Below are positions 31,178-59,577 of a DNA stretch of 64,000 nt, in pieces. The notes beneath the pieces were generated by a model that was given only the letters and a program-made list of their open reading frames with translations, ran no database searches and was not told the DNA's origin. The DNA is taken from NCBI RefSeq assembly GCF_056746865.1, contig NZ_CM163382.1. One strand, 5' to 3'. Every line of letters starts with the position of its first letter. Position 1 is the stretch's first letter. The position numbers and the translations under genes are program-made.

Positions 31178-32407
31178 TCATCTGCTACCGTTTAGGAATG
31201 CGGACCTTCTATTGCTTTTTGATTTTACACCATAATAAACAGCATTAATTTGCGTCTTCATCAATAAATATTCACGAAACTTCTTAAACAGTTTCATATC
31301 TGGTTTAAAATCGGCCTGCCAGAATTGGTGCAAATGCCCTTGATACGTCAACCCCTTGATGTCGTACAGAGCATTACCCATCACTTTGAGTGGTTTGTTA
31401 TGAATCAGTGCAGAGATCCCCACTGTACTGTTAATTGTCACAACCGCTTTTGCATGGCGTAATAATTCCGGCATTGGGAGATCGTGTACGTATATGACTC
31501 GCTCGCCTAAGCCATATTCCTTACTCAACCGCTTAATTAATGGTCGATAGAGTCTGTGACCGCGATCCATCGGATGGTGTTTGATCACCAAATAACTCTC
31601 TTTCGGTGCCTTATGCGAAAATGAATATACAACTTCGTTAATATAATCACGCACATCATTATAATTACTGTGATTACGAATTTGGCTATCATTATAAACT
31701 TGTAAAATAACAAGATAGTAACGTTGGTCCAGATCATTCACTAACCGAGCCAATACATTACGTTGCATTATTTTGTAAAATAGCTTACGCCAGTACGCAC
31801 GCCCCCAGCAACGAGCCTCATACCAAGGAGAAAATGATTTGTGATGACGGTAGCGAGTGAATTCATGTCGGTAATGCCATCCCATCAGGTAATACCACAT
31901 TGCATGACCAATACGTTTCATCGTCGAGGGTTTTAAGTTCTCAACATGTGGTGCAGGCATATCTGGTAATTTACGATAAAAGTCAGGATCGCGCGGCAGC
32001 GATGAATACGCGTTTACACCGTCCTCTTCAACAGTAATAAATTGCGGACGTAAATATCCTTCTTCAAATGCCAGAAAGCGGATCCCTTTAGACTTCGCCC
32101 AACGTTTTGCTTCTTTGTGCAATGGACGGCAGTCACCAAAACAGAGAATGGTATCAAAGTCAAATTGCCGGTGGATATCTCGTAACCAACCAGGAAATTC
32201 TTTCGGCGTTTGGTAATAAGCCAGATAGTGTCGATGACGGCAGTAAAAACGATCTCCTCCATTGAATACAACATTCACAGCGTTACGACCTAATGACTCT
32301 AACCACTCGGCAACATCATTGAAGAAAGGTCCCATCGGTCCCTGCAATAGCAGATATTTTTTACCAGATAATAAAATGCTCAGAGCATTATTTTTCATAA
32401 TAATCAA
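31178..32407 (-). CDS. kpsS: capsule polysaccharide biosynthesis protein KpsS
   Basis: 409 aa; …LLSGKKYLLLQGPMGPFF…LAFEEGYLRP… recognised as KpsS. Confidence 0.85.
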   Translation of the reverse strand: MIIMKNNALSILLSGKKYLLLQGPMGPFFNDVAEWLESLGRNAVNVVFNGGDRFYCRHRHYLAYYQTPKEFPGWLRDIHRQFDFDTILCFGDCRPLHKEAKRWAKSKGIRFLAFEEGYLRPQFITVEEDGVNAYSSLPRDPDFYRKLPDMPAPHVENLKPSTMKRIGHAMWYYLMGWHYRHEFTRYRHHKSFSPWYEARCWGRAYWRKLFYKIMQRNVLARLVNDLDQRYYLVILQVYNDSQIRNHSNYNDVRDYINEVVYSFSHKAPKESYLVIKHHPMDRGHRLYRPLIKRLSKEYGLGERVIYVHDLPMPELLRHAKAVVTINSTVGISALIHNKPLKVMGNALYDIKGLTYQGHLHQFWQADFKPDMKLFKKFREYLLMKTQINAVYYGVKSKSNRRSAFLNGSR

Positions 32408-33560
32408 GTAATAGTTGACAATAAAATTTATCAGTTCAGTAAAATTATAAGAATATAATTAATTTCCGTTAACAGCGTATAACTCGTTTCTTTTTTCTGA
32501 TAAAAAATCGAATTTGATTGATGTTTGAAGTAAATATTTCAAAGATTATCCAACCGCAATAGGCTCCAGCCGTATTGGGAGCATAAAATATTGGATAAGC
32601 ACAGATCGCATCTGCGAATCTTAATCTACGCCCGTGACGTGGGGAAAATGGTATACACCAACATTATATCTGTATTAAATTCTAGATTTTCAAGTGTCTG
32701 TCATTTCCTTTAAAAAAGAAAGCGTCGCCATAAACACTCTCTAAACAAAAAACCTATAAGAATAGAATTTATTATAGAACCAAGACGGTTTAGAAACACA
32801 TCTATTACCAAACACTGAACATAACTCTAAACAACATTGAATAAAAATTAATGACTTTTAATATATTTCATATAGTGTATCCTCTGGAGAGCAATATATT
32901 AATCGCTACAGAACGGTTATTAAAAAATATAGAACCAGTGATTGAATCAAAATGACCGATAAACAGTTCAGCAAAGTATAGCAACAGTGACATTTGTTAT
33001 AACAATGATTTTTACTACACGCAAAATATTAACATCACTAAAGTAATGAAAAAACATATTTATCTAAGCACAAAAATACAATATATAGCACATTATAAAA
33101 TAGAATTAAAACAAACCGTAACAACCATGATGCTATATTAATAGTTAAAATATTTTTAGTAAAAGATAAATTACCCCCATTAAAAATTCAAAACTGATGT
33201 TAGTTAACTCATAAGATCCTGCTAATTGATATAACTACGCCCCATGGGATAATGTTTTAATAACAGAACATTATCAGAAAACTGATCCCTCCAAATTTAA
33301 TTATTTTCTTGCTTATTTTATCAATAAAATAGAGTTCTGAAAAGTTATCTTATCTGAAAATATATTAGTGCCATATAGTAACAAAAAATATCAACCTTGC
33401 ATAATGATTTTAACTGTTCAAATAGTGCTCTACCCACATATCACGGGTGACATTTAATATATTTCCTTTGATACTCTACCAATAATAATTTATTGCTGAT
33501 TGTTTAATCACATAATCCCAAACTGCCCTGCAATAATATATTAACTCACAAAAAAAATCA

Positions 33561-35708
33561 TCAGGGTAAAAGTGAACGAAAAAGTCTCAAAGTTTGAGCA
33601 AAAGAAACTAACTTAATTCGCCAACGCTGCCACCACTTAACACCTGCCGTCGTAGCTTTTTTTTGAGTAGATAATAGATGAATTAATTGTTCAGGGCTGC
33701 ACCAAAGCCCTGACTTCCAATCTATATAACGCGGATATTTTACTAATGTAATATATGCTAATGCACTCAACGTTAATGTACGATGGCGTCTTTCTGATGG
33801 ATGCTTATCTTGTGTTAATCCCCAACCACTATAAAACGGCTGTCCCCATGTCGTAACCTTCACTCCTTGAACTAGTGCCTCAAATCCACTAAGCGAAGTC
33901 ATGGTATGTAACTCATTTATGTGTGGATATAGCGATTCCAGTCTAATATCAGATACTTGGCTATCAACACAGTGTGCTAAACAACGCGCCGAAATAGTAC
34001 CTTTTCGATTGCCAGATACCACATCCGGATGAGGTTTGAACAGAATATGTGCATTCGGTTTAGCTTCACGCACAGCCCACAACAACTGTTCATTGCTGCG
34101 GATAATCGGGCTACCACACAAAATGGATGCATCACCATCAACCTGACCAACCACTAGAATCAACTCACGTCCGTCGTTAGGGGGCTCATATTCTTGTGTA
34201 CTCCCCACATTGTATTTACTGACTCGTGATGATTGTAATTGCGCTAATAATGACTCTGCGCGTGCTTCTTCTTTCGCATCTAAAACGTACGTAGTGAGTA
34301 ACTGCTCAAGCTTACTCGGACGGCGGCTATCAAAATAGATTCCAACGGGGTCAATCGAGAGTGATGAAGGTCGACATAAATTAGACCCCAATCCGTTGGA
34401 GCGGATAAAACCATCTTCAATCCGGATCACTGATTGCAGTTCAGGATAACGGTTTCCCCACACCAACACCTGTTCATCATCTTTTAACTGTGAGGGCACA
34501 GTACGAACAAAACAAAGTTCATCTGCCAAATACGCACAAAATGTGCGTATAAAAGCACGCTTCCACAGAGAAAAACCAACGAGATAAAGACGACGCCAAG
34601 GTTTGGGCTCTACCTGCTGCTGAGCCAAAATCGCTACAACATCTTCTACCTCACAACGTTTTCCCAATATAGGATCTAAATAACGCGGATAACGGATCAA
34701 CGCCGCCGCAACTAAGCGGGGCAATGAAATAGATGAAACGCCTTCGGCTGACATTGCTTCTTCACGGCGTATACAACGTTTACTGTCATGCGTTAACCCC
34801 CACCCAGCATAAAATGGCATACCGAAGCAATATACAGGTTTGCCCAACAGCAACGCTTCAAAGCCAACCTGCGATGAAACTGTGTACACCGCATCCACCA
34901 TACGAATTATTCTATGCGGATGGCAAGGTTCACTCACCACCTCAACATCAGCCAGTCGAGGATCACGCCCCACTAAACGTGCTAACACGCCGCTTTTTTT
35001 GCTAAAGCGTGTATCTGGGTGTGTTCGCAACAATAGACGCGCATTAGGGTGATTACGGCGAGCCTCGACCACCATAGAAACAAAATCAGCTTCGCAAGCA
35101 AGAGCCCCAGAAATTGACAAGTCTCCCGCTACTTGATCCACAAGCAAAATACGCGGTCTTGGATCATCCAGTAAACGTGCTAAGTTTGAATGAGCCGTGA
35201 GGGTGAATAACTCAGGTTGTATATGTGTCGGTAAATCTAAAGAAGGCCCGTCAGTAGCACGGACAGAGCCATTAAATGTATGCTCAGTGCTATTGGTATA
35301 GCAGTTATACTTGGTGATTCCTAAACGCAAAATATCAGAGATCAGATGCTCAGCGCGCGCAAGTAAAGCCGTATCAACAGGTTCAATAATAAGCTGTTCT
35401 AATTGACTCGTCTGATGTGCATCATAATATATCCCCAGAGGGTCAGCAATAAGAGAAACCGCCTTTCCTCCTTTTGCTGGGTGCCCGATATAGCCAATAA
35501 AACCATCTTCAAGTTGCCAATAAGATATTCCTAACTCTTGAGCTTTCTGTTTAATCTGCTTAGTATTAGATTTTTTTCCCCAGCCAACTAAAACGTCATT
35601 TTTAGAAAAAGCCTCGTCTCCTTTCATATAAAGCAATGGGTGACCAAGCATAGGCTCAATATTATTTTTTCTGGCAAGAATCCCTTTCGATCCCGTATAT
35701 AAATACAT
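33561..35708 (-). CDS. kpsC: capsule polysaccharide biosynthesis protein KpsC (two-domain)
   Basis: 715 aa; duplicated-domain architecture with motifs …LEDGFIGY… and …IEDGFIRSNGLGS…, …PHPDV…GNRKG…, …HTMTSLSGFEAL…; exact start codon uncertain. Confidence 0.85.
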   Translation of the reverse strand: MYLYTGSKGILARKNNIEPMLGHPLLYMKGDEAFSKNDVLVGWGKKSNTKQIKQKAQELGISYWQLEDGFIGYIGHPAKGGKAVSLIADPLGIYYDAHQTSQLEQLIIEPVDTALLARAEHLISDILRLGITKYNCYTNSTEHTFNGSVRATDGPSLDLPTHIQPELFTLTAHSNLARLLDDPRPRILLVDQVAGDLSISGALACEADFVSMVVEARRNHPNARLLLRTHPDTRFSKKSGVLARLVGRDPRLADVEVVSEPCHPHRIIRMVDAVYTVSSQVGFEALLLGKPVYCFGMPFYAGWGLTHDSKRCIRREEAMSAEGVSSISLPRLVAAALIRYPRYLDPILGKRCEVEDVVAILAQQQVEPKPWRRLYLVGFSLWKRAFIRTFCAYLADELCFVRTVPSQLKDDEQVLVWGNRYPELQSVIRIEDGFIRSNGLGSNLCRPSSLSIDPVGIYFDSRRPSKLEQLLTTYVLDAKEEARAESLLAQLQSSRVSKYNVGSTQEYEPPNDGRELILVVGQVDGDASILCGSPIIRSNEQLLWAVREAKPNAHILFKPHPDVVSGNRKGTISARCLAHCVDSQVSDIRLESLYPHINELHTMTSLSGFEALVQGVKVTTWGQPFYSGWGLTQDKHPSERRHRTLTLSALAYITLVKYPRYIDWKSGLWCSPEQLIHLLSTQKKATTAGVKWWQRWRIKLVSFAQTLRLFRSLLP

Positions 35709-39306: not shown

Positions 39307-40030
39307 ATATTTCGCTCTCTTATTTTACAATTAATAGCTATTAAAAATAAACTTGTTGACTCCGATATATTAGAAATATCGGGATACCGAACTAAATATT
39401 TTTATATGCTTTTGCCAAGCAGACTCTATATCCACCCTGTATCACTATGCTTTCTGGCATACAATATCCCATCATTGACACAATGATAAACATATAAATA
39501 AAGAAAATTTTAAATCATATAACCAAATTACTTTCACTTTATTATCAATAAGTATTTTGATAAGAATACCTATACCACAGGGAGCCCCCTGAAACATAAT
39601 ATTAGCGAAGAATGATAACTGATAGTTACCATCTTAGAGATAAAAACTTATTTGTGTGGCGGGCATGACATGCCAGAGAATAAAATAGACTCAAAAAAAA
39701 TCACTAAGGGAGTTATTTGCAGCAAGAGAATTTCTTAGTCACTTGATTCAAAACAATCAAATTAAAAAGCGTTTTGATTATTAGCCTTATTTTATATATT
39801 GTGTCGTTACAGATAAAGTAAAAAACACATAATGGCATTTTCGGTTGACATATGTATTAACATATATTGCTTTATCATATAACCATATTTCAATTCAACT
39901 TACACTCTCAAGTTAATTGAAGCAGGCAATGCCTAATATATTTTTGCATCATAACCTATGATTAATATTAAAACACCAATCAGTTCGATTTTTAAACATT
40001 CAATAGCACCAATTAAATAAAAATATCTTT

Positions 40031-41062: not shown

Positions 41063-43071
41063 GGCAATACTATATTAGGAGCTCTACTTAAAGAGAAATC
41101 AGGACGTTCATAACTCAAATTTTGGTTGTAGGCTGGATCGTGTTTAAGTGCACATGCCCATCGTTTTTTCATATAGCGCAACTCAGATTTCGCTCGTATC
41201 TGCTGTTGTTTTGATACATCTTTACCACGGGAAATAGACTCATGATGATACAATTCAGCGAAGGGAGTCCAGATTACTCTCCAGCCAGCATCTCGAACTC
41301 TGAGACAATAATCTACGTCATTAAAAGCTATCGGCAAATTCGTTTCATCAAGTCCTCCGAGCGCCAGATATAACTCTTTATGAGTCAATAAACAAGCTGC
41401 AGTCACAGCTGACAGCTCTTGGGCACTAACAGCCCTACGCTGATATCCAGGATCGTTAGCTGACAAACCATTATGAAAATGATCTGCACAACCGCCAGGG
41501 CCGACAGCATCGCCTGCATGCTGAATCAAGCCATTTCCGTAATACAGCTTTGCTCCTACCACACCCACGCCGGGGCGTAATAAATGAGAAACCATTTCAT
41601 CCAGCCAGTCAATACTGATTACCTGAGTATCATTATTCAGCAAACATATCATATCTCCATGTGCGTTTCTCACTGCCAGATTGTTGATGGCTGAATAGTT
41701 AAACGGTTGATCATAAGAAATCACCCTAACGCCATAAACCTGTTCGATATGAGCAAGATAAGCAAGCGTCTCCTCCTCATCGCTCTGATTATCCATCACT
41801 ATGACTTCCATATTGGCATATTGCGTCTTTTGTATCAGGCTTTCGATACAAGGGCGTAAATGAGCAATACCATTTCTAGTAGGGATAATCACTGAAACCA
41901 ATGGCAATTGCGCTGGCAACGGCCAGCGCCAACGACATACACCATGAGGTGCTGCCTCAATGCTCACTCCTGATGGCAGTAAATCTTCTTTATCTTTCAG
42001 CGACTCAAAATCATCCGAAATCAACGCTCTTGCAGGCAAATGCATCATCAATGATGGAATATGGACTATCTGTTTCGGTTCACACATCTTTGCCAACTGT
42101 AGCCACCACTGATGACATGCCGCCGAATCAAAGGGAACACGGCCAGCACCATGTTCACGCCACAAACCACACCAACTAATATAGTTTTGGCTCTGTAGCA
42201 GCGTTTCATTCCAATCAGGTTTAAAGTTGGGAGAGTGACGTTCGCCTCTCTCGTCAAGCAGATCGTGATCACCGTATATCCATAAACAATCAGGATTCTG
42301 GCGTAACTGGTGGGCAACCCAAAATAAGGCGCCGGGCGAAACCACTGCCCCTACAGGCAACACCCACTGCCATTCGCCGCCTGACTGACTGGAGATTTCT
42401 GGATATGCACTATGCTCCTGCAGACTTATATTGCTTGCCGGATAACAGAGTGCCTGAATACTCTCCAGGGTCTTGTTGCGGCTCTGTTCATCCCCAACGC
42501 CAACAAGATGCAAACAGAAACGTGGTAATGTGCCCCAGCGAGCCAGCTGGCGCTTAATCAGCTTGTATTCGGCGGGTTCAAGGGTGTCGAAGTCTGCTAG
42601 CCACTCATCATAGCTATTGAGTGGCTTATCATCGCGAACTCTGCTGACAAGTTGGTAAGCCTGCTGCAAGTCCGTGAGCCACAAATGCCATGAAAGGCCT
42701 AACCTTTTGCGTCTGGACTTCGTTAAGCGTCGGTAAAAAGGCAAAACCCGGCGCAATCGACGCCAGAGACTCTCGGCGCGTGATACACAACAAAGCTGAG
42801 CAATCTCAACATTACACTCAGCGCCCTTAGTACTTGCCAGCAAAGACAAATGACTAGCTCCCGTGGGTAGATAAACCAGCTCCAGCAACGTGCCTCGACG
42901 AGTGACCGGCAACATCTGTTCATGCCATATTCCTTGTCCGCATTGCCAGCGCAGAAGAGTTTCACCTCGAGTTTGAGTCGTCGACACGCGCCCCCGAATC
43001 AGAAGCCAACCAGCATGAAGAGAAAACGAGTCTGGCAATGTCAGAGGCTGCCAATCGCGATAGCTACACAT
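41050..43071 (-). CDS. family 2 glycosyltransferase with N-terminal extension
   Basis: 673 aa; GT-A signature …VSVIIPTRNGIAHLRPCIESL…VIVMDNQSDEE…. Confidence 0.7.
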   Translation of the reverse strand: MCSYRDWQPLTLPDSFSLHAGWLLIRGRVSTTQTRGETLLRWQCGQGIWHEQMLPVTRRGTLLELVYLPTGASHLSLLASTKGAECNVEIAQLCCVSRAESLWRRLRRVLPFYRRLTKSRRKRLGLSWHLWLTDLQQAYQLVSRVRDDKPLNSYDEWLADFDTLEPAEYKLIKRQLARWGTLPRFCLHLVGVGDEQSRNKTLESIQALCYPASNISLQEHSAYPEISSQSGGEWQWVLPVGAVVSPGALFWVAHQLRQNPDCLWIYGDHDLLDERGERHSPNFKPDWNETLLQSQNYISWCGLWREHGAGRVPFDSAACHQWWLQLAKMCEPKQIVHIPSLMMHLPARALISDDFESLKDKEDLLPSGVSIEAAPHGVCRWRWPLPAQLPLVSVIIPTRNGIAHLRPCIESLIQKTQYANMEVIVMDNQSDEEETLAYLAHIEQVYGVRVISYDQPFNYSAINNLAVRNAHGDMICLLNNDTQVISIDWLDEMVSHLLRPGVGVVGAKLYYGNGLIQHAGDAVGPGGCADHFHNGLSANDPGYQRRAVSAQELSAVTAACLLTHKELYLALGGLDETNLPIAFNDVDYCLRVRDAGWRVIWTPFAELYHHESISRGKDVSKQQQIRAKSELRYMKKRWACALKHDPAYNQNLSYERPDFSLSRAPNIVLPWMN

Positions 43072-43174
43072 AATATAACTTACAGTCCAAAGTAACAGAT
43101 GGGGGATACAGATCCTTATTAGCAGGCCTGTAGATAAGAGCAGAAATAAACACCAAAGCGCTTGCTCAATATAT

Positions 43175-44143
43175 TCAAACCATCCATTTCTTCATTTTTT
43201 TTTTGAACCAAGAACCAGTAGGAATAGGTTCAACTGCTGATAACTCAGTCAACTTCACACTTAATCGTTCCATTTCAGCTTTTACTTGTCCTGAGAATGC
43301 GGCAGCGAGAAGGCACTCTTCATCATTACGATCATGTGCCTTGAAATAATCTTTATGCTTCACTCGATTAGCAGTAGCAGCACTACCACGCAGATGCTTG
43401 CCCAACAAGAATTCCTCAAGTGATTTAACTGCATAGTGATTTACCCTGACACCGCTCCAAATCACTTCAGCACTAACTCCTTTACCATGCCTCGGGTGCA
43501 GAATCAAATCACGACCTAACACATCAATATATCGACCATAACGCAAATCAGCATAATGCGGATTATGAAAGCGGTTAACTCGTTCTGGTTTGACCACACT
43601 TTTGAAGTTATGATGAACGTTAAAGGGTTGCGGGGCACGATAGGTAAAACGTTCAATAACCAACCCCTCTTCAGCAAACAGTTCACCACTAGAACCAAAA
43701 TTTGCCCAATTCAATGCAATAGCGCTGACACTCTCATCCTGAAACTTTTCAGAAAAAAAATCTGACAATTTGGTATCCGATTCAAGTGGCAATAAAAATT
43801 CATCAGCATCTATAAATGCAAGCAGGTCTATGTCTCTGGGACAGCTACGTAAAATATGTTCATATGCAGGTAATTGTGGCTTTTGATTCACCAAAATCGG
43901 TTGATCGAACATCTTCACAATACCTAAGCGAGCGAGGGACAATAGCAACTCTCGACTACCATCACGACTACCATTATCTGCAATAATAAACCCATCAACA
44001 CCTAATACTCGATGGTAAGCAATCCATTCAAGTAAACTTGAATACTCATCCTTGATAATAGCGGCTATATAGAGTTTCAAATTATCATCCAGCAAAAATG
44101 TATCAATGCCGATACTATCGGCATTGATACTCAATTTTATCAT
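43175..44143 (-). CDS. putative glycosyltransferase (GT-A-like), paralog of the N-terminal domain of 47216..48445
   Basis: 322 aa; …AAIIKDEYSSLLEWIAYHRVLGVDGFIIADNGSRDGS…AFIDADEFLLP… parallels …AILKNEYPFIVEWIAYHMALGINDIYIADNISSDGS…AFIDADEFISP…. Confidence 0.5.
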   Translation of the reverse strand: MIKLSINADSIGIDTFLLDDNLKLYIAAIIKDEYSSLLEWIAYHRVLGVDGFIIADNGSRDGSRELLLSLARLGIVKMFDQPILVNQKPQLPAYEHILRSCPRDIDLLAFIDADEFLLPLESDTKLSDFFSEKFQDESVSAIALNWANFGSSGELFAEEGLVIERFTYRAPQPFNVHHNFKSVVKPERVNRFHNPHYADLRYGRYIDVLGRDLILHPRHGKGVSAEVIWSGVRVNHYAVKSLEEFLLGKHLRGSAATANRVKHKDYFKAHDRNDEECLLAAAFSGQVKAEMERLSVKLTELSAVEPIPTGSWFKKKMKKWMV

Positions 44144-44586
44144 CAGGCAGGAGAAAAAAATAACCCGTCCAACCAGGTGATCACCCCATCTGATTCCAGC
44201 CCAATAATTATTTTGGTAGAAAATGGAATACTGATATCAAATCCGCACCGAAGTTTTTGATGTTTTTCAGGTGGTTGTTTTAGTATAGCTGAAATAACAT
44301 CAGGCCGCTTTGTATTGAAAGGAAAACTGTATGTCATATGATCAATTTTAACAGCAACATGGGAATCTGCTTCCCCTTCAGCCACTAACCACCCCCGAAG
44401 TACAATCCGGCCATTGACGATCTTTAGTGGTTGTTGTTCTGATGGCGAATCAATATTCCAATATAATTGACCGCCAGACTTGACGAGTGGCGATTTTGTG
44501 AGGGTATAAATAACAGCCATACGATTCCTTCTATTTGAAATATTGCTCAAATAACTCAGACTATCTCCAGATTGCCTTTCAAGCAA
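44143..44586 (-). CDS. small protein carrying the recurring ~100-aa region-2 module
   Basis: 147-aa ORF (start may be the internal MAVIYTL…); shares the G-W…RPDV…CGF pattern with the C-terminus of 47216..48445 and the N-terminus of 45929..47209. Confidence 0.4.
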   Translation of the reverse strand: MLERQSGDSLSYLSNISNRRNRMAVIYTLTKSPLVKSGGQLYWNIDSPSEQQPLKIVNGRIVLRGWLVAEGEADSHVAVKIDHMTYSFPFNTKRPDVISAILKQPPEKHQKLRCGFDISIPFSTKIIIGLESDGVITWLDGLFFSPA

Positions 44587-44713
44587 GATAATCCCAAGTT
44601 TTTATGGGATATACATAACTATGGATACAACCAAGAAAAATGATTTTGCCTCAATGGAAGAAATTACGGTAATAGAATTCCATTATCCCATTTACAATCC
44701 ACTGCTACGTTAT

Positions 44714-45910
44714 TTAATCAGCCCCAAAAAGATCTCTGGTATAAACCTTTTCGGCTACATCGACTAATTCAGCAGCCATGCGATTACAGAGAATAACATC
44801 GCTCAGCGCTTTAAACTCAGCCAGTTCCCGAATCACTCGGGAATTGAAGAATGTATCTTCATGAATAGTCGGTTCAAAGACCACTACCTCAATACCCTTG
44901 GCCTTAATACGCTTCATGACTCCCTGTATCGCAGAAGAGCGGAAATTATCTGAGCCAGCCTTCATCACCAAACGATGGATGCCCACCACCTTAGGTTTAC
45001 GACGCAATACGCTATCAGCAATAAAGTCTTTGCGAGTGCAATTAGCATCGACAATGGCGCGGATCAGATTGTTGGGTACCTTGTTGTAGTTGGCCAGCAA
45101 CTGCTTGGTGTCTTTGGGCAGGCAATAGCCACCATAACCAAATGAGGGGTTGTTATAATGGCTACCGATACGCGGATCCAAGCCAACCCCTTCGATAATC
45201 TGACGACTGTCCAAGTCATGCGACTGAGCATAGGTGTCCAACTCATTGAAATAGGCCACCCGCATTGCCAGATACGTATTAGCAAACAACTTGATGGCCT
45301 CCGCCTCGGTGCTGCCCGTTAGCAGTACCGGAATGTTCTGCTTGATCGCCCCTTCTTGCAACAATTCAGCAAATCGTTTGGCCCGCTCACTACGCTCACC
45401 CACCACAATACGGGAAGGGTATAGGTTGTCATACAGCGCCTTGCCCTCACGCAAGAACTCGGGAGAGAAGATCAGATTATCGGTGCCTAACTCACTACGC
45501 AGCCGCTCGGTAAAGCCTACCGGAATGGTAGACTTGATCACCATCACTGCATTAGGGTTGATACTGATCACATCGCGAATCACCCACTCGACTGAGTCGG
45601 TGTTAAAGTAGTTGGTCTCGGGATCATAATCGGTGGGGGTAGCAATAATCACAAATTCGGCCGCCTCATACGCCTCGAATTTATTCAGCGTCGCCTTAAG
45701 GTTCAGATGATTGTTGGCCAGATAGGCCTCCAGCTCTTTATCTGCAATGGGGGATTGACGGCGATTAATCAGTTCGACTTTCTCTGGTAATATATCCAGT
45801 GCAATTACCTGATGATGTTGAGCTAATAGCACTGCAATAGAAAGACCTACATAACCAGTTCCAGCTATAGCTATTTTCATGTTATAAAATACCTGCTCAA
45901 TTAAGTTCAC
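44714..45910 (-). CDS. ugd: UDP-glucose 6-dehydrogenase
   Basis: 398 aa; [21 protein letters not shown]… NAD-binding motif and catalytic …GGYCLPKD…. Confidence 0.85.
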
Positions 45911-45928
45911 ATATATTTTTTACAAGTA

Positions 45929-47209
45929 TTATGAGGGTGCAGATTCAGTATTATATAATTTACTCATTTTTTCATGATAAAATAAAAGCGAAGGGCAAGA
46001 ATTATACTCAAAATTATTAATCTTTTTCTTGTATATTTTTCTAACAATTTCAGAAGTAAAACAGAAATTGTTTTTAGGTGGCTTCACAATAAATCTAGAA
46101 GCGACCTGAATAATTATTTTTGATGGCTTTTCATGAGCCACCACATCAAGATCCACACTCGCACCAGAAAATACATGGATTACTCTTTTATATTTATTTA
46201 CAAAATATGGAAGCATATTTATAGAATAAGAATCACCAAAAAAAACCACGACACTATCATCTATTTTGCGATTATTTTCAAATACTCTCACCCATCCTCT
46301 ATTATTAACCCCGTTATCATAAACAATATAATTATCAATACCAGAGAAATCAGCCTTCAATATATCCTGCGAAATCGGAGGGGTTGTCTTAATTCCTAAA
46401 TCGCCATAACTCCTTTTAATGTAAAAAGGGAAAATAGAATTATCGAGGACCGTGTTGTTTTTATTTAAGATATTATCTATATATTTAGCCACCTGCAATG
46501 CAGCAAAATCAGACCAGTGCGTATCAACTTTAGAATATGAGCTATCACCGATATCTCTTAATATATCTAAAGGATAAACTATATCAGTACAAATGGAGAG
46601 TAACTGTTCAACTGGTGTCTCTGGCGATTTTTTAAACGGATAGTATGATGACAATACATTCTCTTTGGCTGGAGCCAAACAAAAAACATATTCAATCCGT
46701 TGATCATTCATATATTTCCGAATAAAATCTAGATAGTTCTTCCAAACAGAAATATCATCATTTGTAATTTTTTTAATTCCAATAAACTGCTCTTTACTCT
46801 GATTGGTATCATGATCCAAGAATAAATACCCATTGTGTCCAAAAAGCACTTTTTGAGGAGGAGTTATATCTACTCTCGCTATTACATAATCAACATTATT
46901 AATAGTTGTTCCAATACTAAACGACTCCAAACTAGTAATAGCATAACTAAAACCACACATAGTATCACTAACATTTCCATTGAAATGTCTTACTACGTCT
47001 AATCTGGGTGTATTATAGTCAAGAATTAATTTCTCTCCATTCTTAACTATATATATATTATTCTGACAACCTTTATAGAGTAGCCATCCCGATAAATGAA
47101 TCGCAGAGCAATTTGACTTAAAATAACTACATGTCCGAGGACTATCAATTGAAAACTTGAGCCCGGTAATATCTGGTCTTATAACAGATAGTTTGATATC
47201 ATATTTCAT
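45929..47209 (-). CDS. hypothetical protein with recurring N-terminal module and possible SGNH/GDSL-type esterase or O-acyltransferase region
   Basis: 426 aa, very AT-rich; …VVVFFGDSYSINM… resembles a GDS(L) block. Confidence 0.4.
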   Translation of the reverse strand: MKYDIKLSVIRPDITGLKFSIDSPRTCSYFKSNCSAIHLSGWLLYKGCQNNIYIVKNGEKLILDYNTPRLDVVRHFNGNVSDTMCGFSYAITSLESFSIGTTINNVDYVIARVDITPPQKVLFGHNGYLFLDHDTNQSKEQFIGIKKITNDDISVWKNYLDFIRKYMNDQRIEYVFCLAPAKENVLSSYYPFKKSPETPVEQLLSICTDIVYPLDILRDIGDSSYSKVDTHWSDFAALQVAKYIDNILNKNNTVLDNSIFPFYIKRSYGDLGIKTTPPISQDILKADFSGIDNYIVYDNGVNNRGWVRVFENNRKIDDSVVVFFGDSYSINMLPYFVNKYKRVIHVFSGASVDLDVVAHEKPSKIIIQVASRFIVKPPKNNFCFTSEIVRKIYKKKINNFEYNSCPSLLFYHEKMSKLYNTESAPS

Positions 47210-47215
47210 TAAATT

Positions 47216-48445
47216 TTAAACCAATTTTGAAACTAATTCTTCATTGAGTGGAAATTCTAAACTAACTAATCCAGCCTGATTTAAAGTATATATCTGAACG
47301 CTTGAGATAAGTTGTGTAGGAAGCGACAACGAACATATAAACCCGCACCCAATTCCATTACCAATCCCAGCTTTTTCTACATCAGGCCGATCATAAAATG
47401 ATAGTGAGTCTGGGCGTATTAAAAAAGAGTTATTTATAACCATTACAATACTACTACATGGTTTTTTATCATTATCTACTGCCCAACCTTTTAGAACTAT
47501 AGCACGTCCATCTTTTTTAATTGTATCAATAAATCCAACCCCCATACTTTTAGTAGTCTTATAAAGTGGTTCACTTCTGCTTTCTATGAGCGGCTGATAT
47601 CCACAATCAAGCAATTTCTCATTAATGGTTGCGATTTGACATTTTACTTTTCTCAGAAACCATAATGGAATATGTTGCTCAATATTATTCAAATCATGAT
47701 TTTTAAAAAATTGCAGATTTCTACCGAGACTATTTTTTAGTGTTGTAGCTCTACCTCGAGCGACCTTTTTATTCAAGAATTCAGCCTTTGACTTAATTAC
47801 ATAATGATTAAGTCTGATAACTGACCAGTCAATCACCTCACTTATTCCATCATAACTATGATGTTCTTCTCCACTTGGCATAACAAATTTCTTATCTGAA
47901 TTAATAATAAAAGCATGGGGTGTTGGTCCTGCTTTGATAACATCAGAAACACGAACTATTGACTTATAATGCCTATTAACAGGATGCAGATCAGCAGCTC
48001 TCTTAACGAATCGTTCTATAACAAGACCGTCATCAGGTAAAATTGAATGAGATGAGCCATATACAGCCCAGTTGAGTGATATTGCACCAATCGCCTGATC
48101 ATTTAATAGCGGCATCAGTTTGTTTAAACCATCTTCATAGTCATTTGGTGAAATAAATTCATCTGCATCAATAAATGCAACCCATCTATCTTTATCAAGC
48201 ATTGACAATATTTTATTGTACGCCCCCAATTGTGGGGGAATACCATCTTGTGTCGGATAGTCAATCCTTTTGATAATATTCGCTTTATCTAGAAAATATA
48301 AAAGCTCACTACTTCCATCACTACTAATATTGTCGGCAATATATATATCATTAATGCCAAGAGCCATATGGTAAGCAATCCACTCAACAATGAATGGGTA
48401 TTCATTTTTTAAAATTGCACCTATTGAAAGCATCGCTGTTATCAC
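47216..48445 (-). CDS. putative glycosyltransferase (GT-A-like) with C-terminal recurring module
   Basis: 409 aa; N-terminal domain paralogous to 43175..44143; C-terminal …IVLKGWAV…RPDV…CGF…. Confidence 0.5.
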   Translation of the reverse strand: MITAMLSIGAILKNEYPFIVEWIAYHMALGINDIYIADNISSDGSSELLYFLDKANIIKRIDYPTQDGIPPQLGAYNKILSMLDKDRWVAFIDADEFISPNDYEDGLNKLMPLLNDQAIGAISLNWAVYGSSHSILPDDGLVIERFVKRAADLHPVNRHYKSIVRVSDVIKAGPTPHAFIINSDKKFVMPSGEEHHSYDGISEVIDWSVIRLNHYVIKSKAEFLNKKVARGRATTLKNSLGRNLQFFKNHDLNNIEQHIPLWFLRKVKCQIATINEKLLDCGYQPLIESRSEPLYKTTKSMGVGFIDTIKKDGRAIVLKGWAVDNDKKPCSSIVMVINNSFLIRPDSLSFYDRPDVEKAGIGNGIGCGFICSLSLPTQLISSVQIYTLNQAGLVSLEFPLNEELVSKLV

Positions 48446-48456
48446 TCTACTTAAAA

Positions 48457-50874
48457 TTAAATGGAGAAGTCTTCTCTATCTTTAGATAGGTTTGGACTGT
48501 AGAAGGGATCGAGTTCGAGATGTTTACCCCATTTGCTTTTCATAAAGTTCACTTCCCTGGCAAATCTGGCTATTTTCTCCGGGGAATCTTCGGCACCTCG
48601 ACTAATTGATTCATAGTGGTAAAGCTCGGCATAAGGCGTCCAGAGATTACGGTACCCCGCTTCGCGTACTTTCAGACAGAAGTCCACATCATTAAAAGCA
48701 ACATGCAAATTCTCTTCATCCAACCCGGCAACTTCCTCATAAATATTTTTGCGAATAAGCAGGCAAGCAGCCGTGACGGCCGAGAGAGTTTGTGTCAACA
48801 ACAAACGGCTGAAATAACCCGGATGATGGCGAGGGTACTGTTTATGAGAGTGTCCCGCTACACCACCAATACCGAGAATAACTCCGCCATGTTGTAAAGT
48901 ATCATTACTGTAATAGAGCTTGGCCCCGACACAACCAATCTCTGGTCGCATGCAGTGACTCACCATCTCGGTCAGCCAATCCGGGTTGATTACCTCGACA
49001 TCATTATTGACCAAGCCGATAATGGCCCCCTTGGCGTGACGAACGCCAAAGTTGTTGATGGCCGAGTAGTTAAAGGGGTGGTCATAGCGCAATACTCTGA
49101 CCCGGCTGTCTTCCTGCTGGATCTGGGCAAAGAAATCGAGAGTCTCCTGCTCCACGCTGCCATTATCGAGAATCAGGATCTCGAAATGGGTATAGGTACT
49201 GCGATCGATGATGCTACGCACCGCAGTTTCGGTTAGAGCACGACGATCCCGAGTAGGAATAAGCAAACTAACCAGTGGGGCTGGTTCTGAAATAGGGTAA
49301 CGTACCCGATAGGTGTTGGGAACCAACCCCGCCTCAACCGTAACCTCAGGTTGCTGCTTAGAAAAATAGTCGCGTAGCGCTTTGATGCCAGCCTCCGTGG
49401 TGTAGCTCTTCTCGCCAGAAGCCAAAGCTGTAGAGCCCTCAATGGTACGCCAGTGGTAAAGCACACGGGGAATGTGAACTATCTGCTCTGCAGCTACATG
49501 AGGCAGACAACGCAGCAGCAGATCCTGATCCTGACTTCCTTCTACTCCCAAACGGAATCCCCCAATCTGTTGCAGCAGAGAGCGACGATAGACCCCGAGA
49601 TGCGAGACATAGTTTTGCGAAAAGAATAAATCTGGATTCCAATCGCTCTTGAAATGAGGATCAAAACGCTCACCGCGGGCATTAATTTTATCTTCGTCAC
49701 TGTAAAGGATCTGGGTATGAGGCTGCTCACAAATAGCCTGAGCCATAAATAGCATAGCATGCTCTGGCAACACATCATCATGATCCAACAGAGCTACGAA
49801 ATCCCCTTTTGCAATTTCGAGAGCACTGTTGGAAGCAGCCGAAATATGACCATTGTGCTTTCGGTAGACAACTTTGATTCGGCTATCCTTGGCCTCGTAT
49901 TCGCGCAGTACGCGTTGCACATGTTCTTTTGGCGAACGATCATCGGCAATACAGAGTTCCCAATGGGGATAGCTTTGAGCCAGGACAGAATCCAGACAGG
50001 CACGCAAGTAGATCTCCGCTGGATTATAAACAGGAATCACAATAGATATAACTGGAGGGTGAGTCATACTGGCAAGCATCAGACTCACCTCTTTGTTGCC
50101 AGGCAACGAAGGTAATTCCACCGTTTCTATCCATTCCTCATAACCGACAGAAAACGGGGTAACGCTGAACGTTTCGTTATAGAATGCCTGCAGGCGCTCT
50201 ATTGACATATCGCCATTGTCCATCAATATGGATTTTTTGATTTTTTCTAGCGGCATGTCACGATAGCTTTGGTGTTCTTTTTGAATGCGAGCCAATAGTG
50301 CAGACTCAACTACTTTCACATCAACAGCTGCTATTTCAAACTGATTAATTGCAAATGTTGCTGCCTGTTCTAATGGATCAAATCGTAATGCAACAAGAGG
50401 CGATTCCAGATAGAACAAACGACTGACGCTGACCGCTCGTTTATATGGCAACGTTACTGTTTCAAACTCATTGAACCCTTTACCTGTATCCAAATATAAC
50501 TTAGCTAATCCTTGCTTTGGTTGGCAATTAATAGAGATATTAAATTGATACCATCCCTTGCTAATATTTGAGAGCTGCTCCAAATCAATAATGAAAAATG
50601 GATCATTTCCCTCTGCAACCCAACTTTGTGAATTATCTATATCTATCGAGAGCTGATTTGTTGCCAGATAGGGCAGCACAACTGTATTTTGCATTTTACT
50701 CACTGCAGGAGAAACGTCCCATGCTTCGCATGGTTTCCTACCGAGTAACATCCCATAACGCTTAAAATGTTCTCTTGCTGACAACCCGGTCTGTTTCACA
50801 TCCAAATAGTTATGCAGATACCAATGTTCATCAAAGTGAGCTAGCAACTCGTCTTGGTGATTTTTAACCATCAC
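48457..50874 (-). CDS. two-domain family 2 glycosyltransferase
   Basis: 805 aa; two GT-A signatures (…ISIVIPVYNPAEIYLRACLDSV… and …VSLLIPTRDRRALTETAVRSI…); N-terminal FDEHWYLHNYLDV… motif shared with the C-terminus of the 909-aa protein. Confidence 0.7.
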   Translation of the reverse strand: MMVKNHQDELLAHFDEHWYLHNYLDVKQTGLSAREHFKRYGMLLGRKPCEAWDVSPAVSKMQNTVVLPYLATNQLSIDIDNSQSWVAEGNDPFFIIDLEQLSNISKGWYQFNISINCQPKQGLAKLYLDTGKGFNEFETVTLPYKRAVSVSRLFYLESPLVALRFDPLEQAATFAINQFEIAAVDVKVVESALLARIQKEHQSYRDMPLEKIKKSILMDNGDMSIERLQAFYNETFSVTPFSVGYEEWIETVELPSLPGNKEVSLMLASMTHPPVISIVIPVYNPAEIYLRACLDSVLAQSYPHWELCIADDRSPKEHVQRVLREYEAKDSRIKVVYRKHNGHISAASNSALEIAKGDFVALLDHDDVLPEHAMLFMAQAICEQPHTQILYSDEDKINARGERFDPHFKSDWNPDLFFSQNYVSHLGVYRRSLLQQIGGFRLGVEGSQDQDLLLRCLPHVAAEQIVHIPRVLYHWRTIEGSTALASGEKSYTTEAGIKALRDYFSKQQPEVTVEAGLVPNTYRVRYPISEPAPLVSLLIPTRDRRALTETAVRSIIDRSTYTHFEILILDNGSVEQETLDFFAQIQQEDSRVRVLRYDHPFNYSAINNFGVRHAKGAIIGLVNNDVEVINPDWLTEMVSHCMRPEIGCVGAKLYYSNDTLQHGGVILGIGGVAGHSHKQYPRHHPGYFSRLLLTQTLSAVTAACLLIRKNIYEEVAGLDEENLHVAFNDVDFCLKVREAGYRNLWTPYAELYHYESISRGAEDSPEKIARFAREVNFMKSKWGKHLELDPFYSPNLSKDREDFSI

Positions 50875-50876
50875 TT

Positions 50877-53606
50877 TTATTCTCCCTTATTGACAGGCAG
50901 GCAACTGCGCTGCTCAAACTTCCCATACATAATGTAATGAAGCAGCGGATTAATGCCTCCTTGGGCCACATCCGGATAGGCTTGCAAATACCAGCGAGTA
51001 TCAAACTGCTCACTAGGGCTATAACCTTTATCCGCCCCCACGCTAATAAAATGCTCAAGAGCTGAGAGCCCAGTGTCTGCAACCTCTGGGTAGCGATGTT
51101 GATACCAGAGTTCATCAAACAATCCTGAAGCGGCAATACGCTCCGCGGCACTCTCTGTAGCTGTTGTTCTGGATGGAGTCTCCTTAAATGTTCTGCCAAG
51201 AGCACGAACTGGGGCTGTAATCTTCCAAGAGACGGTTCTCTTCAAATTCTGAGCGCGTTCTTTTGCTCTATTCAATTGCCGCTCTTTTTGTTTTAACTCA
51301 CAGCTAAGCTGCTCCATATGCCGCGTCATGACTGCCAACTCCTGGAAACGCTCTGCAATATTAGCTTCCAACCTTCCGTTGAGTGTGGTTAGTTCTCTTA
51401 CCTGGTCTTGCAGTACAGACTGCTGGCTCTGCAGCAAGGTTTGTTCCCGGATTAAGGCCTCCTTCTCTTCTTTCCAGGCTTGCTGCTGAGCTCTATATGT
51501 TTCATTGGTCTGTTGTTGTTCACTTGCTGCGCTAAGGAGTGCCTGATCACGTTCTTCCAGCCAACGGGTTAAGGTTGCAATCTCGCTGTACCGCTCATTG
51601 AGCACCGATTCCAACTCATCAAGTTGATGTTGCTTTTCTTTTGCTGCTGAGAGCAATGCAGACTGGGCCTGCTGAAGCGACTCTTGCTCAGCCCTTAACT
51701 GCTGCTCTACGCCAGACAACTTGGTGGTAATCAATTGTTTTTCAATCTCTAGTTCAGTGATAATCTGCTTGTGCTCTTCTAATAGACGTGTTAGAGCTAC
51801 CGTTTCACTAAAACGCTCGGCTAATGCCAAGTCCCGTTCGCTAATCTGTTGCTGATGTGTGGTCTGTTCAACTGCCAGTTGTTGTTGTAATGCTGATAGC
51901 GCCTCTGTGAGTTGCTTATACTCTGCTTGTTGAGCAGCCATTACGTCGCTTTGTGACGCAATATTAGACTCGCGCACTGCTATTAGTTGAGTCAGTTCAT
52001 CACATTGTTTAGAAGCCGCAGCCAAAGCAAGAGTTTGCTCATCTATGCTTTGCTGCAATGTTTGTTGCACAAGTTGCCCTTCTTCCAACTGTTGCTGTAG
52101 ATTTGCACTTACCTTTTTCAGTGCATCATATTCCAAGCCTAACGTATCGTGCTGTGCTTCCAGTAATCCATAAGCATGCTGCAACTGGTTTTTAGTTTGC
52201 TGCTCACCGTCAAGCTGCTGCTGCAATGCATTAGCCTGCTGTTGCAACAAGTTCACCATATTGTCTCGCTCGGCCAGTGTACGAACCTGTGTATCCTGGA
52301 CATGTAGCGCTTGTTCCAACTGAAGCTGTAATTCGGTAATTTGCCGCGAATGTTCGCTCAATGCTCTGTTACTCTTGCTGAGCGCGAGAGTAAGGTGAGA
52401 TGCACGCTGTGTTTCTTCACTCAATTGTAACGTCAGGGTATTGACCTGTTGCTCCAGTTGATGGCGAGCTTGCTCCTGGCTCGTGATGCGACTCTGTTGC
52501 TGCTCTAGTTGATGCAGAGCTGTATGCAACTCATCGTTGGCTTGTATTCGCTCCTGCGACCATACACTCAAGTTTGTTTGGGCCTCATTGAGCTGTTCTT
52601 GCAATAATGCCACCTCAGATGTCAGCGAATTGATATGTTGCTGGGCAAAAGATAGCTCATCAGATTGCACTTGAGCATGTGCAAGCTGCTTTTCCATTTC
52701 TAATATGCTGTTATGTTGTGCAGTAATGCGCTCGGCAAGACGCCCTCTTTCCAATGCCTGCTGTTCTACCAATAGCTGCCGTTCAGCCTGAATGTCATCT
52801 TGTTGTGTAGACAACTGACGTTTTAACAGGGAATTCTCCCAACTCTCGCTACAAGATTTCCCCAAACGACAAAAGATGTCTTGGACTTGTTTGGTTACAC
52901 GAGCATTTTCTGAGATTTTATACAAATTATTAAGTTCTGGAGATTGTTCACACCCCACACCAACTATCCCTAGTCCATGCCCATGAGCGAACTCAAAGTG
53001 TGGATATTGTCGTTTTAATTCATCCAAAAGCTGAAATACGCCAAAACCACGTTCCCTAACATTGGTATCATGCATAATGACCACAGCCCTTTCAGAAAGC
53101 TTTGGCAACCAGCTTTCAAAATCATGGCGTACCGCTTCGAACGTATGCAAACCATCAATATGAAGCAGATCAATGCTACCTTGTGAAAAATGCTCTAACG
53201 CTTGGTCAAATGTACTGCGAATGAGAGTAGAAAAACCTGAATAGTGCTGTTGATTATATTCTGATACTTGCCTGTAAACTTCTTCGCCATACAGCCCCGC
53301 ATGTTCATCTCCCCCCCAGGTATCAACGGCAAAGCAGCATGTTTCTAAATCTAGTTTAGAGACTGCCTGGCAGAATGAGAAATAAGAACTTCCATAATGA
53401 GTTCCCAGCTCAACAATATTTCTTGGCCGCAGTGTGTCAACTAACCAGAAAGCAAAAGGAATATGTTCTAGCCAAGCAGATTGTGCAAGATATGTAGGAC
53501 GCCAAAAAAGAGATGATTTGAAAATGAAATTCAATTCCCCGCCAATATCAGTGATGGGATATAACTCACGATTTTCTACTAACTGACTAATTTTTTGACT
53601 ATCCAT
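50877..53606 (-). CDS. methyltransferase-domain protein with ~550-aa coiled coil and C-terminal repeat motif
   Basis: 909 aa; N-terminal …IVELGTHYGSSYFSF…IDLLHIDGLHTFEAVRHDFESWLPKLSERAVVIMHDT… resembles class I SAM-dependent (Methyltransf_24-like) methyltransferases; residues ~250-800 are Q/E/L-rich heptad-like sequence; C-terminus has two FD..WY…YPDV… repeats. Confidence 0.6.
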   Translation of the reverse strand: MDSQKISQLVENRELYPITDIGGELNFIFKSSLFWRPTYLAQSAWLEHIPFAFWLVDTLRPRNIVELGTHYGSSYFSFCQAVSKLDLETCCFAVDTWGGDEHAGLYGEEVYRQVSEYNQQHYSGFSTLIRSTFDQALEHFSQGSIDLLHIDGLHTFEAVRHDFESWLPKLSERAVVIMHDTNVRERGFGVFQLLDELKRQYPHFEFAHGHGLGIVGVGCEQSPELNNLYKISENARVTKQVQDIFCRLGKSCSESWENSLLKRQLSTQQDDIQAERQLLVEQQALERGRLAERITAQHNSILEMEKQLAHAQVQSDELSFAQQHINSLTSEVALLQEQLNEAQTNLSVWSQERIQANDELHTALHQLEQQQSRITSQEQARHQLEQQVNTLTLQLSEETQRASHLTLALSKSNRALSEHSRQITELQLQLEQALHVQDTQVRTLAERDNMVNLLQQQANALQQQLDGEQQTKNQLQHAYGLLEAQHDTLGLEYDALKKVSANLQQQLEEGQLVQQTLQQSIDEQTLALAAASKQCDELTQLIAVRESNIASQSDVMAAQQAEYKQLTEALSALQQQLAVEQTTHQQQISERDLALAERFSETVALTRLLEEHKQIITELEIEKQLITTKLSGVEQQLRAEQESLQQAQSALLSAAKEKQHQLDELESVLNERYSEIATLTRWLEERDQALLSAASEQQQTNETYRAQQQAWKEEKEALIREQTLLQSQQSVLQDQVRELTTLNGRLEANIAERFQELAVMTRHMEQLSCELKQKERQLNRAKERAQNLKRTVSWKITAPVRALGRTFKETPSRTTATESAAERIAASGLFDELWYQHRYPEVADTGLSALEHFISVGADKGYSPSEQFDTRWYLQAYPDVAQGGINPLLHYIMYGKFEQRSCLPVNKGE

Positions 53607-58237: not shown

Positions 58238-58263
58238 TATTTTCTAACCGTCTACCTTCAACT

Positions 58264-58635
58264 TTATTCTTCAATAAGCAAAGTGCTAACTGATGTTTGT
58301 TCCAACTGAGGTACTTGATACCACTTGTTATTCTCTTTACATACAACACTTCGCTTTGAATAATTTTTATTCATCGCATAACTTAACTTTATGCATTGAG
58401 AACCTAAAGCCGATATATACCTTTCCTCAATAGTATAAATTACGCCATTTTTGTTGAATGTCGTGCCTTGATCTTGGTTATTTAATGGTGCCTGCAAATC
58501 TTCAGGAATAAGAGAATAAGAAGAATTAATCGCTGTTACCAATGGACGAGAGGCTTCAACTTGTTTTGGATCATGTGCGCAGGCCGTTATAAAAAAGATT
58601 AGTGAAAATAATAAAATACGATGTGCAAGGTGCAT
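58264..58635 (-). CDS. putative small lipoprotein
   Basis: 123 aa; signal peptide with lipobox-like FITAC; directly upstream of and co-directional with kpsD. Confidence 0.45.
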   Translation of the reverse strand: MHLAHRILLFSLIFFITACAHDPKQVEASRPLVTAINSSYSLIPEDLQAPLNNQDQGTTFNKNGVIYTIEERYISALGSQCIKLSYAMNKNYSKRSVVCKENNKWYQVPQLEQTSVSTLLIEE

Positions 58636-59565
58636 TTTAAAACGTTATCCAAAAGTTGATAGTATGTAAAACAATTACCTTCTATTATTGATACTCTGAC
58701 AGATATCAATAATAGCCCATAAATATAAGATATTTAAAATTATAACCACACAAATTAATCATAGATGTTGCTAGTATAAGATTGACTTTAGTCAACTGGT
58801 GTTTACATCATCTGTTTATAACTAATTACGAATATATCCTTTATCTTTTGGATATGTACTACATATGCAACACACATCCCTAAAAATATTATTTTTATGG
58901 CCCCGTATATTGCTATCTTTTTTTTATAAAATTTAATAATAACAACCATATGGAAGAGAAAATCCCTCTTATACATAAAGAGGGATCAATTAAATAAATT
59001 TGTTTTGTAATGACTCAGTAAGGCATAGACGTTTTCATAAATTCTTAAATTACTATCCCCAAAAATCTAAGTCCTGAAAAACTTTAACACTCTAATATTT
59101 TCATGAGCCGTTCAGCACACCCTCAACTTCGATAAAAAATGCTAACTAGTAAATAATTGTCGCAATAATAATAGTCGTACTTTATCAATAACAGATAAAC
59201 AAAAATAATAAAAAAGAGGGGAGATACACTTGCGATAGAATGGCGGCTTCTTGCCCCCCTTTGCCCGGTCCTGACTAGCATGGCTGGAGTCAGTGTCAGG
59301 CCACGACCATGCTCATCATGGAAGCAGCTTTTGTAGTACACTTCGCAGCTTATTTTCCTGGAACGAAATGTCTGGCATCGTGGTGCATAACATAACCCCC
59401 AATGCCCAGCAGATGCACAGAAGGTTCTAGAATCGCCCACTGATATCCCATACAAAATTTACCAAAACGTGTTCGTATTTCTCGTATAAATAATGTCTCT
59501 ATGGTGACGTTCTAGACTTCAAACCCACTTTTTGAATTTGATGATGTGCTCCTAATCTCTTCAGG

Positions 59566-59577
59566 AATGCTACCGCC
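59566..59577 (-). promoter_or_regulatory. ops-like element (GGCGGTAGCATT on the minus strand) in the kps leader; candidate RfaH recruitment site
   Basis: Reverse complement of 59566-59577 reads GGCGGTAGCATT, matching the ops core GGCGGTAG; lies about 930 bp upstream of the first ORF of the kpsD-M-T-E block. Confidence 0.4.

Follow-up and report, generated by a model that had tools for sequence, protein, structure and literature searches.

The group 3A capsule locus and its kpsC-kpsS gap

The window analysed here is a stretch of 64,000 nucleotides of contig NZ_CM163382.1 (NCBI RefSeq assembly GCF_056746865.1), and its minus strand carries the whole of an E. coli group 3A capsule (kps) locus. 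Loci of the K96/K54 type match it, among them that of the strain studied in PMC13410964, whose capsule mutants are among the 100%-identical matches to the gap described below. The main features of the locus are listed in operon order.

59570-59577, minus strand: ops element GGCGGTAG, upstream of kpsD, found by pattern search
58237-53747, minus strand: kpsD, kpsM, kpsT and kpsE, downstream of ops in operon order
39306-35758, minus strand: rmlB-rmlD-rmlA-rmlC, the end of the serotype-specific region, before kpsC
33561-35708, minus strand: kpsC of group 3A type, intact, 715 aa, with Pfam PF05159 in two stretches
32399-33560: the gap between kpsC and kpsS
31178-32398, minus strand: kpsS of group-2 type, intact, 406 aa, assigned by identity to group-2 KpsS

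Both proteins that flank the gap are Capsule_synth (PF05159) proteins, with a KpsC of 715 aa and a KpsS of 406–409 aa. Taking the RefSeq ATG at 32398 as the start of kpsS, the gap measures 1,162 bp; an earlier sequence-only reading of the same DNA had placed its boundary at 32408, at an in-frame TTG upstream of the kpsS ATG. That reading had described a very AT-rich interval with no ORF of 60 aa or more on either strand, and this description holds. At 28.1% GC the gap lies below the window as a whole (46.9%), every one of its six frames contains 19–35 stops with a longest stop-free run of 64 codons, and the longest ORF with a start codon encodes 41 aa. The lack of ORFs follows from the 28% GC composition, and thus what is non-trivial is the gap itself and its composition. 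Two further details of the local sequence can be recorded here. The kpsC gene ends in a tandem stop, TGA TGA (33558-33563), of which the second TGA is also found in the Plesiomonas sequence, and a second ORF-free gap of about 720 bp with 26–31% GC is present at 39307-40030, between rmlB and a 343-aa gene without Pfam match.

The gap and this type of kpsC occur together, one copy each, in 101 of 5,426 complete E. coli genomes and in none of the others. Across the 101 genomes the gap is 98.1–100% identical and is never annotated, so it is a fixed feature of the lineage and not a peculiarity of one strain. In strain 2016C-3878 the gap and kpsC are identical or nearly so to those of the window (one base differs in kpsC), and the ORFs of the window at 42000-53606 (909, 805, 409, 426, 398, and 322 aa) differ from the annotated gene set of that strain. 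The same region 3 thus stands beside different serotype-specific genes and is common to different K-loci. The sequence-only reading was also right that kpsC and kpsS are normally adjacent, as they lie 4–90 bp apart in every relative examined: 34 bp in a group-2 locus, about 89 bp in the 3B plasmids, 7–13 bp in Aeromonas, 15 bp in Plesiomonas, and 37 bp in K15-type E. coli. It had further considered that other group 3 loci might share the spacer with nothing inside it. All 3A loci do share the spacer; it is not empty, since the relics of pseudogenes lie inside.

Mosaic flanks and gene relics

The two genes that border the gap have different closest relatives. The KpsC of the window is 79% identical to that of Plesiomonas shigelloides, 71% to the K15-type protein, 67–70% to Aeromonas, and 65–68% to 3B/Leclercia, and it is only 36.8% identical to group-2 KpsC. 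The KpsS of the window is 92.8% identical to group-2 KpsS, 58–59% to 3B, 37–41% to Aeromonas, and 37% to K15-type E. coli. These neighbours so have different histories, which places a recombination junction between them. A 2A-lineage ancestry of the 3A kpsS has been reported (PMC13171606), and the mosaic flanks, as judged from protein identities, agree with this published group-2 (2A) origin. From the same comparisons, Plesiomonas and Aeromonas-like bacteria emerge as the nearest known relatives of the 3A kpsC-kpsS module. The parts of the gap that lie between these two genes are given below, from the kpsC side to the kpsS side.

33546-33560, minus strand: spacer of 15 nt from the kpsC stop to the former kpsS start, a base-for-base match to the 15-nt Plesiomonas spacer
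33479-33545, minus strand: 5' fragment of the kpsS pseudogene, placed by DNA alignment to Plesiomonas
33462-33478, minus strand: junction of an internal deletion of about 490 bp with about codons 24-190 lost, placed by a jump in the alignment
33096-33461, minus strand: middle fragment of the kpsS pseudogene, about codons 190-314, placed by hmmsearch, hhalign, tblastn and DNA alignments
32663-33095, no strand assigned: AT-rich residue of about 430 bp, about 26% GC, no homologue detected
32707-32742, minus strand: weak terminator-like hairpin with U-tract, 10 pairs, 3 of them G-C
32436-32662, minus strand: kpsC relic (kpsC') carrying a frameshift and deletions of 12 bp and 6 bp; the equivalent of the stop is at 32438-32436
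32444-32472, minus strand: sigma-70 promoter-like site TTAACG-17-TATAAT, 10 of 12 consensus positions, from a consensus scan, inside the kpsC' relic
32399-32435, minus strand: former group-2 kpsC-kpsS spacer, aligning to the 34-bp spacer of a group-2-type locus (L002)

The kpsC-proximal part, 33096-33545, is by its alignments recognizable as a decayed resident kpsS of the Plesiomonas/Aeromonas/K15 type. A protein search had brought up these closer relatives of the 3A KpsC. The DNA alignment to Plesiomonas passes over the stop of kpsC, continues along the 15-nt spacer and reaches about 70 nt into kpsS, and the former ATG is now GTT (33545-33543). Over gap nucleotides 1-82 this alignment scores 23 versus 11.0 ± 1.5 in shuffled sequence, a score reached by none of 400 shuffles, and in a restricted profile test none of 1000 shuffles reached the observed score. 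The translation of the fragment reads VNILLQGSLGLCD*TISNKL versus MNILLLQGPLGPFYQTLSQHL. The alignment then jumps, with gap nucleotide 82 corresponding to position 85 of the Plesiomonas slice and gap nucleotide 100 to position 589, and the profile chain skips from column 11 to column 188 at the same deletion.

The middle fragment was found with a profile of the KpsS proteins of Aeromonas, Leclercia and 3B loci, searched on the operon-strand translation. It gave 15.9 bits in hmmsearch (i-E 1.6e-6; 0 of 1000 dinucleotide shuffles above 8.3) and a probability of 82% in hhalign (E 1.1e-5), the latter match reaching the TINST motif region. A frameshift-aware profile alignment scored 42.4 versus 17.2 ± 2.3 in shuffled sequence (0/400), and in this test both the reverse strand and the other AT-rich gap of the window (39307-40030) scored at background. 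The resulting chain is collinear and runs through columns 4-11 (ILLQGSLG), 188-220, 226-246 (FQIR...), 254-271 (NVLLLKHYPMGRSY) and 293-305, so that the fragment spans the regions of the FQIR, KHHPMDRG and TINST motifs, interrupted by frameshifts and in-frame stops. At the DNA level, gap nucleotides 100-394 align by Smith-Waterman with nucleotides ~574-875 of the Plesiomonas kpsS (58.5 versus 16.6 ± 2.0, 0/300), and the middle fragment aligns with the K15-type kpsS (43.5 versus 17.4 ± 2.1, 0/200). The remnant is closest to the Aeromonas-type KpsS, with 13 of 32 residues identical and a BLOSUM score of 76, against 8 of 32 and 43 for group-2 KpsS and scores of 34–46 for 3B. The frame is disabled throughout, with the GTT start, the in-frame stops, at least three frame changes, the deletion of about 490 bp, and no recognizable 3' third. 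Generic Pfam models found no match in any of the six gap frames with stops masked, and close relatives and custom profiles were needed. A decayed kpsS of 3B type had been our first idea; it was given up, as 3B or group-2 KpsS reached only E ~0.2 and the remnant is of the Plesiomonas/Aeromonas/K15 type.

On the other side of the gap, 32436-32662 is, on the homology described here, the last 95 or so codons of kpsC from a group-2-type locus, and it is contiguous with the present kpsS. A blastn search with the gap matched the 3' end of group-2-type kpsC in 89 E. coli genomes at 70.7% identity, and when kpsS was added to the query the homology ran unbroken from 31230 to 32601 in 1,646 group-2 genomes. 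A local alignment of the DNA with the 3' end of kpsC from locus L002 extends it to 32662, and a tblastn search with residues 579-669 of KpsC gave a frameshifted match reaching 32672. In the frameshift-aware profile alignment the kpsC' relic scored 53.7 versus 14.8 ± 1.9 in shuffled sequence (0/200). The relic is 71.8% identical to group-2 kpsC, which equals the identity at third codon positions of the adjoining kpsS (71.8%); the stub has therefore drifted neutrally since its arrival with kpsS. Its substitutions comprise 37 GC-to-AT and 21 AT-to-GC changes.

The translated search for pseudogene remnants that the sequence-only reading had proposed was thus productive, since tblastn located them both with KpsS (E 3.2e-6 and 1.6e-5) and with KpsC (E 2.7e-4). 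Its suggestion that the gap might hold the decayed remains of an inserted gene is correct as far as decay is concerned, and not as to insertion: the decayed genes are those of a resident kpsS and of a group-2 kpsC stub.

Between the two relics, the stretch 32663-33095 matched nothing in tblastx, blastn, Smith-Waterman, frameshift-aware profile, and Pfam searches. Its scores stayed at shuffle level against the KpsS C-terminus, residues 1-585 of group-2 KpsC, the sequence that follows kpsS in K15 and Plesiomonas, all compared loci, and the rest of the window, and part of the gap could consequently have another origin. One such origin would be a foreign gene or mobile element, of which the gap, or at least these 430 bp, would be the remains. 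Apart from the missing homologue, the 26% GC of the stretch, which resembles serotype-specific region-2 DNA, would fit such an insertion. However, the six gap frames contain no transposase or other Pfam signal, the gap lacks terminal inverted repeats apart from short AT-rich pairs attributable to chance, and among E. coli genomes and plasmids no extra copy was found, the gap being confined to one place per genome. The flanking parts of the gap are in addition explained without any insertion, and we therefore regard an inserted element as improbable. The stretch may instead be the fully decayed 3' third of the resident kpsS (about 375 bp) together with its downstream flank, a combination that fits the length of 430 bp.

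Several observations outside the gap also concern the mosaic nature of these loci. In strain HMDUC-17, kpsS differs from the window (31227-32419) at 148 sites (12%), the adjoining 32663-33560 is 99% identical, and the divergent tract begins near 32419, immediately past the promoter-like site. The kpsS of this strain has apparently been replaced again by another group-2 allele, with the shared sequence serving as a recombination handle. Its kpsC differs from that of the window at 37 positions, all of them within one 140-bp patch (34329-34466) that looks like a short imported recombination tract. The gene order rmlB-rmlD-rmlA-(rmlC)-kpsC is also seen in Aeromonas simiae, A. australiensis, A. veronii, Enterobacter cancerogenus, and Leclercia, and the rml block and kpsC may have travelled together. 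In K15-type E. coli, an intact kpsC-kpsS pair (KpsC 71% identical to 3A) is followed by a transposase, past which the other strand carries a shortened Capsule_synth gene of 482 aa and then kpsU and kpsD. Judged by this arrangement, the K15-type locus is another group-2/group-3-like mosaic with a truncated kpsC.

Diversity, RNA and transcription signals

A comparison of sequence diversity was made on five haplotypes, and recombination may inflate the figures. Among four close 3A haplotypes, pairwise differences amount to 10–30 per kb in the gap, which also carries indels, versus 0–2.3 per kb in kpsC. The AT-rich part at 32663-33560, that is the pseudogene and the unmatched stretch, shows 10–15.6 per kb, and the kpsC' relic, which reaches up to 45.5 per kb against HMDUC-17, is the most variable part of the region with 42–68 variable sites per kb. 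The gap is thus several times as diverse as the flanking genes and equals or surpasses their silent sites, so that it looks mostly unconstrained.

This has a direct bearing on the suggestion, made in the sequence-only reading, that the interval could hold a non-coding RNA. The idea, for a small RNA as for a cis-regulatory leader of kpsS, draws on a long, ORF-free interval that keeps its position in all 3A loci, and it found no support. A permissive Rfam scan of the gap and its flanks gave best scores of 18–21.2 bits versus gathering scores of 37–80, with E values of about 1–5 and a gathering score of 50 for the match at 21.2 bits, and folding shows no excess of RNA structure over shuffled sequence, with z-scores of +0.29 for 32663-33095 and +0.09 for the kpsS leader. 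Considering also the indels and the diversity above the silent sites of the neighbouring genes, and that pseudogene remains explain over half of the gap, an RNA gene here is in our judgement extremely unlikely.

A second possibility, which takes up the internal promoter or regulatory region offered by the sequence-only reading, is that the scar has been co-opted, so that a putative promoter within kpsC' drives kpsS, the hairpin ends the kpsC transcript, and kpsS is uncoupled from the rest of the operon. Such a function would be compatible with the pseudogene origin of the DNA. In its favour, only 46 bp separate the sigma-70 promoter-like site from the kpsS ATG downstream of it, the spacing of its TATAAT arose by the 6-bp deletion relative to group-2 kpsC, and both hexamers are identical in five 3A haplotypes, including HMDUC-17 with its breakpoint just downstream. 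The terminator-like hairpin stands upstream of this site, about 50 nt past the projected end of the old kpsS, roughly where the old operon may have ended. A promoter-like match preceded by such a hairpin would fit an independently transcribed kpsS. Yet promoter-like matches are not enriched in the region (6 found versus 8.6 ± 3.0 in shuffles), and the kpsC' relic that contains the site is the very part that varies most. The terminator scan returned one site versus 0.5 expected, and the hairpin, at −13.2 kcal/mol with a z-score of −1.9 and only three G-C pairs, is weak. It has also been reported that the K96 capsule of strain M12 depends on RfaH and on a promoter and an ops element situated about 1.5 kb ahead of kpsD (PMC13410964), although that requirement does not separate kpsS from the other genes. 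Taken together, co-option of the scar is conceivable but doubtful. Its most specific form, in which the promoter born from the deletion and the terminator of the old operon would make kpsS a transcription unit of its own and set the Kdo-linker step apart from the RfaH/OxyR-driven operon, is in our opinion unlikely.

The published work on K96 describes the locus as what appears to be a single operon and tested the region upstream of kpsD only (PMC13410964). The ops element of the window is the sole match to its pattern, with none in the gap; one match is the chance expectation for a window of this size, and thus the meaning of ops rests on its position and on the K96 study (PMC13410964). In the same study, deletion of the untranslated stretch upstream of kpsD that bears kpsM' left the K96 capsule intact. 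In the RefSeq twin of the present DNA the region of about 58238-60062 holds the pseudogene of a partial ABC permease with a frameshift (kpsM') as well as a hypothetical ORF of 123 aa, and this region corresponds to the long 5' untranslated region that was described from strain M12. As to polarity, the transcript of the gap would contain 11.8% C and 16.4% G and has no windows in which C exceeds G. By this argument from composition the gap offers little for Rho loading, and nothing points to strong Rho polarity.

An AT-rich block of this kind might also have been kept as a binding or nucleation site for H-NS that modulates the distal operon and makes kpsS dependent on counter-silencing by RfaH. 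A GC content of 26–28% over more than 1 kb would fit such a site, RfaH is reported to counter the inhibition of elongation by H-NS/StpA in pathogenic E. coli (PMC9765446), and the K96 capsule needs RfaH (PMC13410964). Nothing, however, indicates selection on the gap, which evolves faster than silent sites, and a pseudogene that decays is expected to end up AT-rich, in line with the surplus of GC-to-AT changes in the kpsC' relic. We consider retention of the block for H-NS binding to be quite unlikely.

Origin of the gap and comparison with known loci

In light of these results, we propose with good confidence that a swap of kpsS in a group 3A locus left the gap behind as a compound pseudogene scar, and that it would now be an untranslated spacer of the operon. 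The history of swap and decay is shown by homology. In the ancestor, kpsC was followed 15 nt later by its own kpsS, and Plesiomonas, Aeromonas, K15-type and 3B loci still keep their own kpsS at this place. Group-2 DNA reaching from about codon 579 of kpsC through kpsS then recombined in downstream, and the imported kpsS took over and made the resident copy redundant. Afterwards the start codon of the resident kpsS, about 490 bp of its inner part and its frame were lost, AT-biased mutation brought it down to about 27% GC, and the imported kpsC stub decayed likewise. Today the gap would be a passive untranslated spacer within the long kps operon, read through by a polymerase that probably carries RfaH loaded at ops upstream of kpsD; initiation at the promoter-like site in the kpsC stub could possibly assist. 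Nothing observed here points to a function of the gap's own; that it has none is our inference, as are its transcription by read-through and the part that RfaH would play there.

The gap is an ordinary recombination scar, and pseudogene scars of gene replacement are a well-known kind. The two relics and the nearest relatives of the displaced gene are nevertheless undescribed in the group 3 literature examined (Clarke et al., 1999, on the K10 locus, and Hong et al., 2019, are outside its scope), and within that literature, which includes PMC13410964 and PMC13171606, the published accounts call region 3 “kpsCS” without mention of a gap. The compound-scar reading explains a conserved and unannotated kilobase in every group 3A capsule locus, and it offers physical evidence of the route by which the 3A kpsS acquired its group-2 origin, since the stub from the donor and the resident gene that was displaced can both be recognized today. 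Its main use is in the annotation and the evolutionary history of group 3 capsules: annotation and K-typing pipelines could label the region as a kpsS pseudogene and kpsC' instead of leaving it blank. For the expression and engineering of group 3 capsules, it would also matter that kpsS sits behind 1.16 kb of untranslated and probably H-NS-prone DNA.

The scar can be set against four known arrangements. At the group-2 junction of CFT073, ST131 and strain N3, the last ~230 bp of kpsC, a spacer of about 35 bp, and kpsS are collinear with 32662-31230 of the window, and the two kpsS genes are 88% identical in DNA and 93% in protein. In contrast to the group-2 locus, only a degenerate 3' stub of kpsC (72%) is found here, and the rest of region 1 (kpsFEDU) is absent. 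The plasmid-borne, Leclercia-like group 3B loci have the same layout of region 3, with kpsC last but one and a KpsC that is 65–68% identical; they differ in keeping their own kpsS about 89 bp after kpsC, with neither the 1.1-kb gap nor any group-2 sequence. The kpsC-kpsS pairs of Plesiomonas shigelloides, Aeromonas and K15 type encode a KpsC that is 67–79% identical over its full length, and it is to the 5' end and middle of their kpsS that the gap aligns. The 15-nt spacer after the kpsC stop is common to Plesiomonas and the 3A gap. In those loci kpsS is intact (394–444 aa), whereas here it is startless, deleted, frameshifted and of about 27% GC. Finally, the kpsM' fragment in the long 5' untranslated region of the K96 locus (PMC13410964) is likewise a dead kps fragment in transcribed untranslated DNA; it lies at the opposite end of the locus from the relics described here, and the kpsC-kpsS gap is not discussed in that study.
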